Origin: Alphaproteobacteria bacterium
GTDB lineage: Bacteria; Pseudomonadota; Alphaproteobacteria; JAEUKQ01
Direction: 5' to 3'
DNA length: 64,000 bases
Assembly (NCBI GenBank): GCA_016794225.1
Contig: JAEUKQ010000001.1
Coordinates: 70,391-134,390, forward strand
A model generated the notes under the pieces. That model was given only the letters and a program-made list of their open reading frames with translations. It did no database searches and had not been told where the DNA came from. The position numbers and the translations under genes are program-made. Below are positions 2,106 to 64,000 of this stretch, piece after piece. Position 1 is the first letter of the stretch; each line of letters opens with the position of its first letter.

Positions 2106-3458
2106 TTATTTTAAGTTTAGTCCGGCGAAAGCCATGGCCTGATTCTGCTTAAATGCCAGTTGCTCAACAGAAAATCCGTCAATTAATTCGTTAAATAATT
2201 TATACCAATTTGTTCGCACGCGCAAATAAATAAATATAGAACCCAAGCCAAGGGCTGCTCTATCCATCAATACAAAAGACTGTGGCAGTTTTACTGTACC
2301 GTGTTGTCGCAATTGTTGGCGTATGGCAATCGCAAGATCACGGGTATATGCCCCCCCATCCATATGGTCGGACAATAAACGATCTCGGTCTTCAAGAATT
2401 GGCCCATAAACAAAATGAGCCCACTTGTTCAAAATAGTAACCAGTTCCCTTGACAAATTATGAAAACCCCATTTTTCATAAGCCGCTGCTGCCTTATCTG
2501 TGTCATTAGCCTGTAAGGCTTGATAAAGATCAATCACTGCTTCAACAAAGGTAGGGGTAAAAACACGAATACACCCATAATCCAGCAAGTTCAAATCACC
2601 GTTTAATCTAATTGTATAATTCCCCGGGTGTGGATCGCCATGTAAAACTCCATAATGATAAAATGGTTTATACCAAGCCATAAACAGATTCTTAGCAACA
2701 GGTTGTAACAGCTGCTGCCGCTCAACATCTTTAAAAAAAATTTTAATTGGTGTTCCAGGTAGCCAGGTCATAGTCAACAATCGCGGAGTTGATAAAGAAG
2801 AAACAACCTGTGGAACATGAACTTGCTGAACGCTTTTAAGCAAATAATTGTAAAGCGTAATATGCTTTGCTTCACGTTGATAGTCTAATTCCTCGTAGAG
2901 ACGTTGTTGTAATTCGACCCAAGCTTCTTGTGTATCAACCGTTCCGTCAAGTTTTTCGAATAAGCCCAATATCAATTTTAACTGCTGAAGGTCTGCATCA
3001 ACGACAGACTTCATGTCAGGGTATTGAAGCTTACAGGCCAACAACTGGCCATCACGATCTTTTGCTTGGTGTACCTGCCCTAGTGAGGCAGCATTACAGG
3101 CCGTTTCAGAAAATTCATTAAAATGATTACGCCAATCAACACCCAGTTCACCCGTCATACGCCGTTGAACAAAGGACATTCCCATTGGTGGCGCATGTGC
3201 CTGTAATTCAGCCAATTTTTCTGCATATTCAGGCGGTAGAAGGTCAGGAACCATAGCCAATATTTGCGCGGCTTTGATAGCTGGCCCCTTTAATGTACCC
3301 AATAGCTTTGTTAATTGCTCTGCATGGGCTTTGGTATCAAAGCTGAAACCCAATTTGCTTCCAGCAACACGTGCGGCAATTCCACCCGTTGCCAAGCCCA
3401 GTTTTGTCCAACGTGTTACTTTAGGCAACCAACCATATTGATTATCGTTTTCTGCCAT
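2106..3458 (-). CDS. UbiB/ABC1 (AarF) atypical protein kinase family protein
   Basis: 450 aa. ABC1-family signature (KAAQILA, HGDPHPGN catalytic loop). Confidence 0.75.
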   Translation of the reverse strand: MAENDNQYGWLPKVTRWTKLGLATGGIAARVAGSKLGFSFDTKAHAEQLTKLLGTLKGPAIKAAQILAMVPDLLPPEYAEKLAELQAHAPPMGMSFVQRRMTGELGVDWRNHFNEFSETACNAASLGQVHQAKDRDGQLLACKLQYPDMKSVVDADLQQLKLILGLFEKLDGTVDTQEAWVELQQRLYEELDYQREAKHITLYNYLLKSVQQVHVPQVVSSLSTPRLLTMTWLPGTPIKIFFKDVERQQLLQPVAKNLFMAWYKPFYHYGVLHGDPHPGNYTIRLNGDLNLLDYGCIRVFTPTFVEAVIDLYQALQANDTDKAAAAYEKWGFHNLSRELVTILNKWAHFVYGPILEDRDRLLSDHMDGGAYTRDLAIAIRQQLRQHGTVKLPQSFVLMDRAALGLGSIFIYLRVRTNWYKLFNELIDGFSVEQLAFKQNQAMAFAGLNLK

Positions 3459-59124: not shown

Positions 59125-60252
59125 ATGAAAAATTATATTCCCTTTCCTGTACGTGCCGGCAAAACTTCGCGCCAGGCACACACCAATTTACCGGAAGGTT
59201 CTTACGAGCGTGAAATTGGCAAAGATGGTTTTTTTGGTCCAGCCAGCCACATGTACCACAAACATCCGCCAACTGGCTGGGTTGATTGGCAGGGTCCCTT
59301 GCGACCACGGGCTTTTGACCTAAACAAACTACCAAATTTGTCAACTTGTCCTTGGCAAATACCCGATGTTTTATATAATGCCCATACCCGTATCCGTTTT
59401 TGGCGTTTATCACAAAAAATGGACCACCTCGTGCGTAACGGTGATGGGGATGAATTATTGTTTGTTCATCAGGGGACAGCAGAACTTTATTGTGATTTTG
59501 GTCATCTTAGCATTCGTGCAGGTGATTATATTATGGTGCCGCGAAGCACAATGTGGCGCCTTGAACCCACCAAGGGTGAATTACAATTGTTGCTGATAGA
59601 GGCCACAAACAGCAGTTATCAACTTCCGGATAAAGGGTTGCTTGGACCGCATGCCATTTTTGATCCAGCCATGCTTGACGTTCCAGCGCTTGATGAAGCT
59701 TTCTTAGCCCAACAAAACGAAAAGAAATGGCAGGTGCGGATTAAGCGGCGGCAAGCCATTTCAACTGTAACATACCCCTTCAACCCCTTGGATGCCGTGG
59801 GCTGGAAAGGTGATCTTGCCCCCGTACGAATTAATGTTGCGGATATACGGCCCCTCTTAAGCCATCGCTATCATCTACCACCATCAGCGCATACCACGTT
59901 TGTGGCTAATCGTTTTGTTGTATGCACTTTTGCCCCAAGACCTTTTGAAACAGATGCAGATGCAATCAAAATTCCCTTCTTTCATAATAATGATGATTAT
60001 GATGAAGTGTTATTTTACCATGCCGGAGATTTTTTCAGCCGCGATAACATCAAGGCCGGAATGATGACCTTTCATCCTTGCGGCTTTACGCATGGACCAC
60101 ACCCCAAGGCCCTCCAAAATATGATGGTTCAAAAAAAACCCGCCACAGACGAGTATGCGGTTATGATTGACACGCGGGATGCCCTAGAACTTGGAACTTT
60201 GCCCGATGGCATTGAGAACATGGCCTATGTCGACAGTTGGAAGAAAACCTAA
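59125..60252 (+). CDS. hmgA: homogentisate 1,2-dioxygenase family protein (short N-terminus form)
   Basis: 375 aa. C-terminal HGD active-site region is conserved (PFFHNND..., FHPCGFTHGPHPKA, compare human PYYHRN/TPHGPD). Lacks about 60 N-terminal residues found in canonical HGD. Confidence 0.6.
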   Translation: MKNYIPFPVRAGKTSRQAHTNLPEGSYEREIGKDGFFGPASHMYHKHPPTGWVDWQGPLRPRAFDLNKLPNLSTCPWQIPDVLYNAHTRIRFWRLSQKMDHLVRNGDGDELLFVHQGTAELYCDFGHLSIRAGDYIMVPRSTMWRLEPTKGELQLLLIEATNSSYQLPDKGLLGPHAIFDPAMLDVPALDEAFLAQQNEKKWQVRIKRRQAISTVTYPFNPLDAVGWKGDLAPVRINVADIRPLLSHRYHLPPSAHTTFVANRFVVCTFAPRPFETDADAIKIPFFHNNDDYDEVLFYHAGDFFSRDNIKAGMMTFHPCGFTHGPHPKALQNMMVQKKPATDEYAVMIDTRDALELGTLPDGIENMAYVDSWKKT

Positions 60253-60261
60253 ACTAATCTA

Positions 60262-61260
60262 TTGGGACTAAGAATTAATATGAAACTTGCCACGCTTAAA
60301 AACGGCCGCCGCGACGGTCAACTTGTTGTTGTAAGCAGCGACTTAAAATTTTGTGTTCCTGTAGAAATTCCTACTTTACAAGAAGCACTAGATAATTGGG
60401 GCAAAATCAGCCCACAATTAGCAAAAATGTTTCAACAGCTGCAACAGGGTCAAGCAAAAAACGCTGTTCCATTTAAGGCAGAAAACTGTTTATCCCCCCT
60501 GCCCCGAGCATATCAATGGGCTGATGGTTCGGCTTATGTTAATCATGTTGAACTTGTTCGTAAAGCCCGTGGTGCAGACATGCCAGCCAGCTTCTGGACT
60601 GACCCGTTGATGTACCAGGGAGGTTCAGATAGTTTTTTAGCACCGCTTGAGGATATCGCCCTGGCACAGGAAGAATGGGGCATCGATTTTGAGGCTGAGG
60701 TAGCGGTTATAACAGACGATGTTCCCATGGGCATATCTGCTGTAGAAGCTGTAGATCATATTAAATTGATTATGTTGGTTAACGATGTTTCTTTACGCAA
60801 TTTAATTCCTGCAGAACTGGCAAAAGGTTTTGGCTTTTTTCAAAGCAAACCGTCTTCATCCTTTTCACCCGTTGCCGTCACCCCGGATGAACTTGGTAGT
60901 AATTGGGATGGCCGAAGGTTGCATTTGCCCCTTTATAGCTATGTTAATGATCAGTTATTTGGCAAACCAAATGCAGGCATTGATATGACCTTTGATTTTT
61001 GCCAATTAATTGCCCATGCGGCGAAAACAAGGCCTTTAGCGGCTGGAACGATTATTGGCTCGGGAACAGTTTCTAATAAAAACCCAGAGGCTGGTTCTTC
61101 TTGTATTGCGGAACGACGCGTTCTTGAAACTTTAAAAGAAGGTAAACCTATAACATCTTTCTTGCGTTTTGGTGACCGGATACGTATTGAGATGCTTGAT
61201 TTAAAAGGCCATTCTATCTTCGGCGCCATTAATCAGCATGTGCAGCCATATAAACGGTAA
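60262..61260 (+). CDS. fumarylacetoacetate hydrolase (FAH) family protein
   Basis: 332 aa. FAH-fold metal and substrate motifs. Immediately downstream of the hmgA-like gene. Confidence 0.65.
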   Translation: MGLRINMKLATLKNGRRDGQLVVVSSDLKFCVPVEIPTLQEALDNWGKISPQLAKMFQQLQQGQAKNAVPFKAENCLSPLPRAYQWADGSAYVNHVELVRKARGADMPASFWTDPLMYQGGSDSFLAPLEDIALAQEEWGIDFEAEVAVITDDVPMGISAVEAVDHIKLIMLVNDVSLRNLIPAELAKGFGFFQSKPSSSFSPVAVTPDELGSNWDGRRLHLPLYSYVNDQLFGKPNAGIDMTFDFCQLIAHAAKTRPLAAGTIIGSGTVSNKNPEAGSSCIAERRVLETLKEGKPITSFLRFGDRIRIEMLDLKGHSIFGAINQHVQPYKR

Positions 61261-61487
61261 TAAGGATATGACTTCGCCACAAAAAACAAAACAGCAAAAA
61301 CATGCCCAAAAGTTGATTATTCTTGATGGTTAACCTCTTTCAGGGTAGTATAAGTCCCTGAAGCAAAGCAATTTCTGGTAATTCTGATATATGAATAAAC
61401 CGCACCTTCGTGGATGTCGGTAGTGTGATTTTGTTTTGCCTCAATATGGCTTCCATTTTCGTATATCTTTTTCTAAAGGAGGATACA

Positions 61488-61691
61488 TTGGCAACAGGAA
61501 CAGTAAAATGGTTTAACTTCAAAAAAGGATATGGTTTTATTCAACCAGAAGATAATACTCAAGATATTTTTGTACATATTTCAGCTTTACAAAAAGCTGG
61601 TATTCATCAATTACTCGATGGCCAAAAAGTTAGTTATGAACTGGCTGCATACCGGGAAAAAGTATCGGCAGTAAATATTCAAATACTTTAA
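61488..61691 (+). CDS. cspA: cold-shock protein CspA family, TTG start
   Basis: 67 aa, (M)ATGTVKWFNFKKGYGFIQPED... RNP1 motif. AAAGGAGG SD sequence 5 nt upstream of TTG 61488. The GTG 61410 extension in the ORF track is inconsistent with the family N-terminus. Confidence 0.8.
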   Translation: MATGTVKWFNFKKGYGFIQPEDNTQDIFVHISALQKAGIHQLLDGQKVSYELAAYREKVSAVNIQIL

Positions 61692-61711
61692 GCTAGATAC
61701 TATCTGTTTTT

Positions 61712-61745
61712 AAAATAGGGCGGTTAAACCGCCCTATTTTTTCAC
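61712..61745 (+). terminator. rho-independent terminator after cspA
   Basis: aaaatagggcgg-ttaaa-ccgccctatttttt: 12-bp stem followed by a T-run. Confidence 0.75.
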
Positions 61746-61817
61746 CTGCGGCAATATGGTTTTTATCAGCTTGTTGCCTTTTTATTTTAGGTTTTTTATA
61801 AAGAATGTAACGGATTC

Positions 61818-62042
61818 TTGCTTAAGGAATTTTTTGTGTTTTCACCACTATCAAAACCTTATATTCAACCACGCAGCCCTTTATCTAGCTTGGGTCGGAA
61901 GATTGTTATTTTATTGTTAGCAAAGTTTTTCATAATTGCAGCTATGCGCTTTTGGTGGTTTAGTGGTGAGCAACGCCCCAAAATTAATCCCGGCCATATT
62001 GAACAACAATTTTTTTTAACCAACCAGGTGCCTCATGATTGA
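61818..62042 (+). CDS. small single-TM membrane protein ORF overlapping cydA start (hypothetical)
   Basis: 74 codons from TTG (or 66 from GTG 61842). Hydrophobic helix IVILLLAKFFIIAAMRFWWF. Its TGA stop lies within ATGATTGATATG of cydA. Confidence 0.35.
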   Translation: MLKEFFVFSPLSKPYIQPRSPLSSLGRKIVILLLAKFFIIAAMRFWWFSGEQRPKINPGHIEQQFFLTNQVPHD

Positions 62043-63588
62043 TATGGAAGTTGTTAACCTTTCCCGTCTTCAGTTTGCTTTAACTGCTTTGTATCACTTT
62101 CTTTTTGTGCCACTGACCTTAGGTTTATCAATCCTGATCGCCATTATGGAAAGTGTTTATGTGATGACCGGTAAAGAAATTTGGCGACAAATGACCAAAT
62201 TTTGGGGTGTCTTATTCGGTATTAACGTTGCAATGGGCGTGGCAACTGGTGTTACCATGGAATTTCAGTTCGGCACAAACTGGGCCTATTATTCACATTA
62301 TGTTGGTGATATTTTTGGTGTTCCACTTGCCGTTGAGGGTTTGATGGCTTTCTTTCTTGAGTCAACCTTCATTGGGCTATTTTTCTTTGGCTGGAGGCGG
62401 CTATCTAGAGTAGGGCATTTGGTTGCTACCTGGTTAATGGCAATCGGGGCTAATTTTTCAGCCTTATGGATTTTAATTGCAAATGGCTGGATGCAAAATC
62501 CTGTTGGTGCCGCCTTTAATATGGATACCATGCGTATGGAGTTAACGTCTTTAAGTGATGTGTTTTTTAATCCGGTTGCCCAGGCTAAATTCGTACACAC
62601 CGTTAGTGCTGGTTATGTTACAGGTGCGGTTTTTGTTCTGGCTATTAGCGCTTGGTACCTGTTACGTAAGAGACATTATGAATTTGCCAAAAGATCGTTC
62701 ACTGTAGCCGCCAGCTTTGGTCTTGCCTCTGCTTTGTCGGTGGTTGTTCTCGGTGACGAAAGTGGTTATGTAGCAACAGAACATCAGAAAATGAAACTTG
62801 CAGCTATCGAGGCCATGTGGGAGACAGAGCCAGCTCCAGCAGGATTTACCATTTTTGGCCTGCCAGATGTTGAAGCCAAAAAAACCCACTATGAAGTAAA
62901 AATTCCTTGGTTGCTTGGTGTTATTACAACTCGCTCGCTAAGCCAGGAACTACCCGGTATCAATCAACTTGTTCAACACGGTGCTGAACGTATCAAGTCT
63001 GGGTTAATTGCATACCGGGCTTTGCAAATTTTAAAACAAGATCGTAATAATCAAGCCGCCCTTGAGGATTTTAAAAAACACCAACAGGATATGGGTTATG
63101 CTTTATTACTGCGCAAATCTTTAAATGACATTACGCAAGCAGCAGAAACAGATATAGCAGCAGCGGCAGATAGTTTGGTGCCAGATGTACCTGTTTTATT
63201 CTGGTCCTTCCGGATTATGGTTGGATTAGGCTTCTTTTTTATTTTCTTATTTGCTGCTGCCTTCTATTTATCAGCCAAACAACGCTTCGACCGCCGTTGG
63301 TTCTTAAAATTGGCTATCTATAGCCTGCCCCTGCCCTGGATCGCAGCTGAACTGGGCTGGATTGTTGCAGAATATGGACGCCAGCCTTGGATTATTGAAG
63401 GGATTCTTCCAACATTTTTAGGTGCCTCATCGGTTAGTGCCAGCCAGGTTTGGACCAGTTTAATTGGCTTTGTGGTTTTTTATTCTGCTTTGGCAATTAT
63501 TGACCTGTTTTTAATGATAAAATATGCCCGCCTTGGTCCTGACCAAGTAACACCCCTATCAAAACCTATAGCTCTAAACCCCATGTAA
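62035..63588 (+). CDS. cydA: cytochrome bd ubiquinol oxidase subunit I
   Basis: 517 aa. CydA family. Q-loop region and heme ligands conserved. Confidence 0.9.
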   Translation: MIDMEVVNLSRLQFALTALYHFLFVPLTLGLSILIAIMESVYVMTGKEIWRQMTKFWGVLFGINVAMGVATGVTMEFQFGTNWAYYSHYVGDIFGVPLAVEGLMAFFLESTFIGLFFFGWRRLSRVGHLVATWLMAIGANFSALWILIANGWMQNPVGAAFNMDTMRMELTSLSDVFFNPVAQAKFVHTVSAGYVTGAVFVLAISAWYLLRKRHYEFAKRSFTVAASFGLASALSVVVLGDESGYVATEHQKMKLAAIEAMWETEPAPAGFTIFGLPDVEAKKTHYEVKIPWLLGVITTRSLSQELPGINQLVQHGAERIKSGLIAYRALQILKQDRNNQAALEDFKKHQQDMGYALLLRKSLNDITQAAETDIAAAADSLVPDVPVLFWSFRIMVGLGFFFIFLFAAAFYLSAKQRFDRRWFLKLAIYSLPLPWIAAELGWIVAEYGRQPWIIEGILPTFLGASSVSASQVWTSLIGFVVFYSALAIIDLFLMIKYARLGPDQVTPLSKPIALNPM

Positions 63589-63600
63589 TAAGGAGGCAAA

Positions 63601-64000
63601 ATGCATATTCTATTGGATTATGAAACACTGCGCCTAATCTGGTGGCTTTTGTTAGGTGTTTTGTTGATTGGATTTGCTGTGATGGATGGTTTTGATCTTG
63701 GGGTGGCCGCCTTATTGCCATTCGTGGCTAAAAGTGATGATGAGCGTCGTGTTTTATTAAACACTATCGGACCTGTGTGGGAGGGAAATCAAGTCTGGTT
63801 TATACTTGGTGGTGGAGCAATTTTTGCGGCTTGGCCAGCAATTTATGCCGTTGCATTCTCGGGATTTTATTTGGCATTATTTGCAGTGTTAATCACGCTT
63901 ATTATACGTCCAGTTGGGTTTAAATTTCGATCAAAACTATCTTATAAAGTCTGGCGTCAAAGTTGGGATACTGCCTTGTTTATTGGCGGCTTTGCTGCCG
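63601..64000 (+). CDS. cydB: cytochrome bd ubiquinol oxidase subunit II (5' part; truncated by window end)
   Basis: AAGGAGG SD sequence followed by ATG 63601. N-terminal CydB sequence (WWLLLG..DGFDLG). Confidence 0.85.
   Translation, partial: MHILLDYETLRLIWWLLLGVLLIGFAVMDGFDLGVAALLPFVAKSDDERRVLLNTIGPVWEGNQVWFILGGGAIFAAWPAIYAVAFSGFYLALFAVLITLIIRPVGFKFRSKLSYKVWRQSWDTALFIGGFAA

Follow-up and report, generated by a model that had tools for sequence, protein, structure and literature searches.

Cytochrome bd oxidases serve as drug targets and matter for survival under low oxygen. Time and again, their small subunits have turned out to be essential (CydX) or mechanistically relevant (CydH). CydX, which is required for assembly, makes contact with helices 1 and 4-7 of CydA; CydH sits between helices 1 and 9, where it blocks an oxygen access route (PMC8951039). 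A further small protein, CydP, was named in 2022 for I35_RS14430 of Burkholderia cenocepacia H111, which is encoded in the operon cydPABX (PMC9104464; see also PMC11742914). In this strain, transposon sequencing (Tn-seq) identified cydP, cydA, and cydB as determinants of fitness during anoxic survival with nitrate. The clean deletion in that study was of cydA only, and its authors regarded cydP as restricted to the Burkholderiales (PMC9104464). Here, we analyze a small open reading frame (ORF) immediately in front of cydA in a 64,000-nucleotide stretch of DNA from Alphaproteobacteria bacterium (GenBank assembly GCA_016794225.1, contig JAEUKQ010000001.1, positions 70,391 to 134,390, forward strand). 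We refer to the whole stretch as the window and number it from its first nucleotide. We are highly confident that this ORF is a member of the CydP family and the first gene of a cydPABX operon.

The window gene resembles described CydP genes in that it stands directly 5′ of cydA, in the same orientation, and heads an array continued by cydB and cydX, which is the layout found in B. cenocepacia. Its product falls within the 50-90 residue range of the family and carries one lysine-bearing helix with R-P...P after it. It differs from the family by R in place of W38, F in place of L60, a GTG start, and a family-model score of 25.8-27.3 bits, below the cutoff of 29.6. The host also differs, as it belongs to a low-G+C lineage outside the Burkholderiales, whose nearest genome (L004) is an ‘Alphaproteobacteria bacterium’ metagenome-assembled genome (MAG) from a membrane bioreactor with a CydA identity of 84%. 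CydX (with AppX and CydS; PF08173, YbgT_YccB) is likewise a small single-helix membrane protein of the cyd operon, but its gene lies 3′ of cydB and its product begins with MWYF, whereas the window cydP lies 5′ of cydA and encodes a protein twice as long with a predicted periplasmic tail. PF08173 does not match the window ORF (Pfam, E ≤ 10), and the same species has a separate true cydX. CydH (also CydY, YnhF), the fourth subunit of E. coli bd-I, is an extra single-helix subunit beyond CydABX and a plausible functional analogue of what CydP may be. In contrast to the window protein, it has only ~29 residues, and its gene is an orphan outside the operon; no similarity between CydH and the window CydP is detectable in NCBIfam and PDB-chain searches. 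Finally, CydZ (DUF2474, PF10617) and the CydY of Allen et al. (2014) are small hydrophobic proteins tied to certain cydAB clades, but they are encoded 3′ of cydB in operons without cydX (PMC4325964), and the window ORF has no Pfam match. The same authors mention an unreported hydrophobic small ORF 5′ of cydAB in every long-Q-loop operon without cydX (Delta- and Epsilonproteobacteria) (PMC4325964).

Results

Homology of the ORF upstream of cydA

We collected the 80 genome loci whose CydA comes closest to that of the window, with Burkholderia not among them, and listed the ORFs that end at the cydA start. Most display a common pattern, in which a basic N-terminal flank leads into a helix with a lysine at its center, followed by the motif F-F-x-P-x-x-R-P-x-x-(T/S)-P-x-x-I-E-x-H-L-L. 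A seed profile of 12 such upstream ORFs recovers 55 loci at E < 1e-5 plus one (L053) weakly at E 0.0026, all on the same (+) strand as cydA and directly upstream of it, with the first off-target match at E 0.04. Searched against the 1375 six-frame ORFs of the window, it yields a single match, the window cydP (E 1.3e-10). A second profile was built from 55 upstream members of other genomes and leaves out the window sequence. It scores the window ORF with 51.4 bits (E 5e-14), while any other of the 1375 window ORFs reaches at best E about 0.09; at E < 0.01, it matches 57 of the 80 loci, every time immediately upstream of cydA. Shuffle controls confirm this signal: the real sequence scores 48.8 bits, compared to a maximum of 7.6 bits in 2000 global shuffles and 26.2 bits in 2000 shuffles in which the N-terminal, helix, and C-terminal segments were kept apart. 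The window has a G+C content of 41%, and its ORF list holds many spurious ORFs of 50-100 amino acids. Since such ORFs are common here, the length of the ORF alone is not significant, and its significance derives from homology instead. Conservation upstream of cydA in relatives, which a sequence-only reading of the window had proposed as a check, is therefore borne out.

Single-sequence searches alone would suggest an orphan. A word-indexed search of 5.8 billion proteins returns only P0001, a protein of the same species, and an exhaustive phmmer search of 1.84 billion representatives returns only P0001 and the 56%-identical P0122; profile methods are needed to reveal the family. We suspect that this weakness of single-sequence comparison may explain why the authors of the 2022 study, relying on BLAST, arrived at a Burkholderiales-only distribution. 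A profile search of the 5.8-billion-protein collection gives 256 matches, and PF28236 is annotated on 120 of 120 among the matches listed. Many matches bear the RefSeq product name CydP, as in Dyella, Luteibacter, Dokdonella, and Methylocystis. The family occurs in Lysobacterales, Steroidobacter, a Coxiella MAG, Methylocystis, Stellaceae, Rhizomicrobium, and others.

The family thus found carries a name. NCBIfam offers a sole match for the window ORF, NF045611, ‘cytochrome oxidase putative small subunit CydP’. The 74-residue ORF matches at E 7.3e-6 with 25.8 bits and its 50-residue core at E 2.5e-6 with 27.3 bits, residues 1-42 aligning to profile positions 1-42 of 45; both matches are statistically significant, yet their scores stay below the curated equivalog cutoff of 29.6 bits. 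Consequently, automatic annotation would not name the window gene cydP. Of the 56 ORFs formed by the window ORF and 55 from the loci, 50 match NF045611 at E ≤ 0.01, the best at E 1.4e-14. The precomputed annotation of P0001 is PF28236:CydP, graded ‘weak’; our local Pfam copy, which predates PF28236, gives no match to the window ORF at E ≤ 10. The tie between the window protein and the founding protein of B. cenocepacia would run through the shared NCBIfam/Pfam name. As a more direct route to the Burkholderia cydPABX, we considered a plasmid collection and rejected it, as the Burkholderia and Ralstonia entries among the matches listed are 31-38% identical and were read as CIO-type. The sequence-only reading had considered the small protein possibly novel, but the family is already named CydP, modelled as NF045611 and PF28236, and used in RefSeq. 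The window ORF is a divergent but ordinary operon member of this named family and no new kind of element.

Selection on the protein

Comparison with L004 shows how the gene diverges. Across 43 core codons, the two cydP genes differ at 13, 8, and 25 sites in the first, second, and third codon position, respectively, corresponding to a pN of 0.27 and a pS of 0.72; for cydA, the respective values are 0.11 and 0.80. Moreover, the residues S14-P-L on the 5′ side of the helix are kept through the codon changes AGC/TCC, CCT/CCC, and TTA/CTG. Together, the third-position bias and the synonymous codon switches point to selection on the protein.

Start codon of cydP

The ORF lies on the + strand and extends from TTG 61818 to TGA 62040-62042 (74 codons), as the sequence-only reading had described; from stop to stop, it comprises 83 codons from 61791. 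Two further in-frame starts exist, GTG 61836-61838 and TTG 61890. The GTG had been placed at 61842 and the short form of the ORF put at 66 codons. However, 61842 is a TCA, six bases off, and translation from GTG 61836 gives 68 codons. A Shine-Dalgarno-like AAGGAA (61824..61829, +) precedes this GTG with a spacing of 6 nt, and no comparable motif is found 5′ of TTG 61818 or TTG 61890. A metagenome gene caller settled on this 68-residue form in three contigs of the same species; the resulting protein, P0001, differs from the window ORF by a single nucleotide. Both L004 and P0122 carry an ATG at the site equivalent to GTG 61836. The BLASTP alignment with the nearest relative P0122 begins at S14 (codon 61875), on the 5′ side of TTG 61890; this conserved residue puts the translation start upstream of 61875 and rules out TTG 61890 as the sole start. 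From these sequence features, GTG 61836 is most likely the start of cydP, with TTG 61818 also possible. We thus assign the cydP coding sequence (68 codons plus TGA) to 61836..62042 (+), drawing on the ORF list, the family profile, and NF045611. Given the ATG at the equivalent position in the closest relative, the low confidence formerly attached to the ORF for its non-AUG start is unwarranted.

The cydP-cydA junction and the cydPABX operon

The gene for cytochrome bd oxidase subunit I, cydA, spans 62035..63588 (+; 517 residues; PF01654, E 2.5e-174). Its initiation region (cctcATGATTGAtATG; ATG 62035) embeds the cydP stop, an observation of the sequence-only reading that we confirm: start and stop share the 8 nt ATGATTGA (62035..62042, +). 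A Shine-Dalgarno-like AGGTG for cydA, recognized by reading the sequence, lies inside the 3′ end of cydP (62026..62030, +). Such overlaps are common in the family. In 43 of 55 family loci, the cydP stop overlaps the cydA start, 29 times as ATGA/GTGA, 5 times in the 8-nt arrangement of the window, and otherwise by 1, 11, or 14 nt; in the remaining 12, the genes are 0-83 nt apart and the protein is still conserved. The stop/start overlap implies that both proteins are probably made from a single mRNA, at the same place and by coupled translation.

The 5′ part of cydB follows (63601..64000, +) and runs off the window. Its translation is near-identical to that of cydB in L001, a contig of the same species, with one difference over 133 residues. 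L001 holds the complete cydB (2145..3293; PF02322) and then cydX (3334..3444; MWYFSWILG...; PF08173, E 2.8e-17). Among the 80 loci, 78 have cydX 3′ of cydB, including 55 of the 57 with CydP. The operon is cydPABX, and CydP accompanies CydX and does not replace it. A position upstream of cydA, which the sequence-only reading had called unusual, is shared by these 57 loci, and in the family loci the CydP gene always stands directly before cydA.

At the very 3′ end of cydP, the constraint appears to shift from protein to DNA. Between the window (62020..62042) and L004 (2985..3004), a 1-nt indel puts the last 6-7 codons into different frames (…TNQVPHD versus …NPAGAP), and yet the DNA CAGGTGCC(T/C)CATGATTGATATGGAA is conserved despite the frame change. 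Here, the constraint seems to act on the ribosome-binding site of cydA rather than on CydP protein. The C-terminus ‘HD(R)’, frequent in the family, is cATGAt... read in the cydP frame. RNA folding gives no sign of additional structure at either start: the region around the cydA start (61960-62080; z 0.02) and that around the cydP start (61805-61900; z +1.2) are no more structured than their shuffles.

Anatomy and predicted topology of CydP

The hydrophobic helix quoted in the sequence-only reading, IVILLLAKFFIIAAMRFWWF, is correct. AlphaFold2, run with a 122-sequence alignment, predicts a helix over residues 15-43 (68-residue numbering) with a pLDDT of 94 for residues 21-40, an additional short helix at residues 55-61, and low confidence for the rest. 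Within the long helix, the predicted transmembrane part comprises I23-F42 (61902..61961, +). It harbors K30 (AAG 61923-61925), and a lysine at this position is invariant in 56 of 56 locus ORFs and in 120 of 120 database members among the matches listed. After the membrane, conservation defines the motif R47-P48-x3-P52-x2-I-E-x2-F-F-L (61974..62018, +), which is predicted to be periplasmic. K30, R47, and P52 are all present in the window protein; among the matches listed, the R47 position is R or K in 120 of 120 and the P52 position is P in 119 of 120. The near-invariant W38 is replaced by R in the window, L004, and L005. An apparent internal echo of the post-helix motif in the untranslated/N-terminal part (FFVFSPLSKPYIQPR) scores 4 bits (E 3.8) and is taken as chance.

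Over 58 ORFs, the flanks of the helix carry 204 K+R on the N-terminal side and 106 on the C-terminal side, and the N-terminal side prevails in 51 of the 58. By the positive-inside rule, this charge bias places the N-terminus in the cytoplasm and the tail in the periplasm. CydP of the window is thus predicted to be a single-pass protein in N-in/C-out orientation.

Divergent copies and loci without CydP

Several loci hold divergent copies. On the Legionella lytica plasmid pLlyPCM2298_1 (NZ_CP071528.1, ~331181-331375; L084 2295..2489, +), the interval between ompW and cydA contains an ORF that is not annotated. Its match to the CydP profile is limited to the helix, lysine included (E 1.9e-7), and the ORF meets the cydA start in an ATGA overlap; RefSeq annotates cydA, cydB, and cydX at this locus, and no cydP. 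Weak CydP-like ORFs directly 5′ of cydA are also seen in Candidatus Odyssella thessalonicensis (L024 2849..2989; E 4e-3) and in a Binataceae MAG (L053 2801..2995; E 9e-4), which suggests further divergent members in other lineages.

The loci without CydP (L029, L031, L045, L050-L052, L055, L056, L059-L061, L066-L071, L073, L077-L079, L081, and L083) fall mostly into one CydA clade with Lysobacterales (Pseudoxanthomonas, Luteimonas), Hyphomicrobiales, and a member of the Burkholderiales (Pigmentiphaga). This distribution suggests horizontal spread of a CydP-less operon type. In L052, L055, and L077, the ORF adjoining cydA on the 5′ side resembles, by translation, the 3′ end of an ABC-transporter (cydC-like) gene. 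To locate a contact site, we also contrasted CydA and CydB residues between CydP-positive and CydP-negative loci. The candidate positions in CydA helix 9 (462, 463, 467, 482, 485, 490, and 497) and helix 2 (74 and 84) were rejected, because the CydP-negative loci form approximately one clade and the independent negative pair L029/L078 keeps the residues of the CydP-positive loci.

The upstream boundary of the transcription unit

Upstream of cydP lies the cold-shock gene csp (61488..61691; Pfam CSD over 61488..61688). Its likely start is TTG 61488, which is preceded by AAGGAGG, and not GTG 61410 of the mechanical ORF list (61410..61691). Downstream of csp, the hairpin AAAAUAGGGCGG-UUAAA-CCGCCCUAUUUU followed by a U run forms an intrinsic terminator (61712..61742, +). 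The 69 nt around it fold at -22.6 kcal/mol (z -3.5); the consensus terminator scan had overlooked this terminator, which folding then confirmed. Rfam at gathering thresholds finds no family in the whole 64 kb, with sub-threshold terminator-like matches near 61661-61748. The csp terminator is the 5′ limit of the cydP-cydA transcription unit and leaves ~90 nt for promoter and leader. In this interval, reading of the sequence points to a weak candidate σ70-like promoter, TTGCCT-17 nt-TATAAA (61774..61802, +). The consensus promoter scan reports no + strand promoter and misses the TATAAA candidate since the last base of its -10 element is an A. A search for an FNR/Anr-type box (TTGAT-N4-ATCAA) gives as best match one with 2 mismatches inside the ORF, which we regard as unconvincing.

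Further upstream, a gene of the fumarylacetoacetate-hydrolase family lies just 5′ of csp. Together with a homogentisate-dioxygenase-like gene (59125..61260), which matches Pfam HgmA_N only at model positions 126-270, it resembles a tyrosine/homogentisate catabolism pair. The window contains no tRNA genes.

Discussion

A translated small membrane-protein gene tied to cydA, as the sequence-only reading had envisaged, is upheld by our analysis. The locus is probably best explained by cydP being the first gene of cydP-cydA-cydB-cydX and encoding an accessory small membrane protein of cytochrome bd-I. CydP would be a 68-residue protein with a short positive cytoplasmic N-terminus, a helix over residues 23-42, and a periplasmic tail of ~25 residues containing R-P-x3-P and a short helix; its invariant lysine would sit ~8 residues in from the cytoplasmic helix end. 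cydP and cydA are predicted to be co-transcribed, and the stop/start geometry would favor coupled translation, such that CydP may be inserted beside nascent CydA, with its N-terminus inside and its C-terminus outside. It could then join cytochrome bd-I in the membrane as an extra small subunit or as an assembly or stability factor, and the buried lysine might make a specific polar contact to CydA/CydB, a haem propionate, or a lipid head group. That CydP indeed acts as a subunit or assembly factor of cytochrome bd-I, a role also considered in the sequence-only reading and the one we infer, appears to us evenly balanced.

Other accounts of the ORF fit the data less well. A chance, untranslated open frame in the cydA promoter or 5′ untranslated region is barely conceivable: it would agree with the exclusively non-AUG starts, the abundance of ORFs of this length in the window, the consensus scan that called no promoter upstream, and the local Pfam copy without a match, but it is effectively refuted by the comparative data. 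These comprise the profile E of 5e-14 with clean shuffle controls, the recurrence of the gene at this site and in this orientation in 57 of 80 related loci, the third-position-biased divergence and synonymous codon switches relative to L004, the NCBIfam CydP match, the independent metagenome gene calls, and the ATG in the nearest relative. A real small membrane protein could also do a job unrelated to cytochrome bd, for example as a stress or transport modulator, and share only the promoter with cydA. All 57 matches at E < 0.01 adjoin cydA on its upstream side, 43 of 55 overlap its start, and the linkage holds in Alpha- and Gammaproteobacteria and, by the literature, also in Burkholderiales. 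Such linkage is what genes for subunits and dedicated assembly factors typically show, and it renders an unrelated job quite improbable, even though CydP is not known to be linked biochemically to a bd oxidase and 23 of the 80 close CydA relatives do without CydP.

More weight must be given to a translated leader or upstream ORF, in which the act of translation or the nascent chain would matter and the peptide, once released, would play no further part in the enzyme. The signal recognition particle might bring the ribosome-mRNA complex to the membrane before re-initiation at cydA, or an insertion-sensitive arrest peptide might set cydA translation. The overlap with the cydA start is a family rule (43 of 55 loci), and the helix ends ~26 codons before the stop, so that it would just be leaving the ribosome at termination and re-initiation. 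The extreme C-terminus is free in frame and sequence between the window and L004 with the underlying cydA ribosome-binding DNA kept, and the Tn-seq data cannot tell the product from polar effects (PMC9104464). Nevertheless, cydA has its own AGGTG at proper spacing, no stable RNA structure hides the start of cydA (z 0.02) or cydP (z +1.2), and the protein is conserved even in the 12 of 55 loci in which the genes are 0-83 nt apart. The window also lacks the masked downstream ribosome-binding site of arrest and leader peptides of the SecM, MifM, and VemP type, and family members place anywhere from 0 to 23 residues between the conserved motif and the stop, which does not resemble an arrest point at a set position. 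The invariant mid-helix lysine, R47, and P52 across three proteobacterial classes suit contact to a folded partner better. The ‘regulatory leader peptide’ that the sequence-only reading had kept as an option is thus disfavored by conservation at the amino-acid level, the invariant lysine, and a serine retained through an AGC/TCC switch, and we consider it unlikely.

Several points weigh against an accessory role of CydP in cytochrome bd-I. To our knowledge, no experiment shows binding of CydP to cytochrome bd. A profile search of PDB chains of at least 20 residues, solved bd structures included, finds no homologue; the best match (E 0.58) is an unrelated ubiquitin factor. The residue contrast described above marks one clade, and co-variation support for a CydP-CydA contact was not found in it. 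Additionally, 23 of 80 related loci function without CydP, and the window copy scores 2-4 bits under the NCBIfam cutoff and has R at the near-invariant W position 38. Both the start codon of cydP and the position of its promoter are read from the DNA and accordingly provisional. The functional data consist of transposon insertions 5′ of cydA, which are possibly polar on cydAB (PMC9104464).

With the accessory role as our preferred explanation, a more specific proposal can be made. We tentatively suggest, at somewhat less than even confidence, that CydP is present besides CydX as a stoichiometric fourth subunit of bd-I in many Alpha-, Beta-, and Gammaproteobacteria. Its lysine and R-P...P tail would then contact CydA, possibly in the cleft between helix 1 and helix 9 that is filled by CydH in E. 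coli, and this contact would modulate the access of oxygen or quinol or the stability of the haem. Low-G+C intracellular or amoeba-associated lineages (the window, the Coxiella MAG, the Legionella lytica plasmid, and Odyssella) would hold divergent copies missed by annotation pipelines.

For the window, our analysis adds a divergent copy from a low-G+C lineage below the annotation cutoff and a corrected annotation, with cydPABX as operon and GTG 61836 as the most likely cydP start. At the level of the family, it reveals a range wider than that of the naming paper, the co-occurrence with CydX, the invariant lysine, and the conserved overlap with cydA. As a third kind of small partner gene, CydP is widespread and reaches well beyond the Burkholderiales, and its invariant, presumably buried lysine offers a mutable residue for a direct test of its role.

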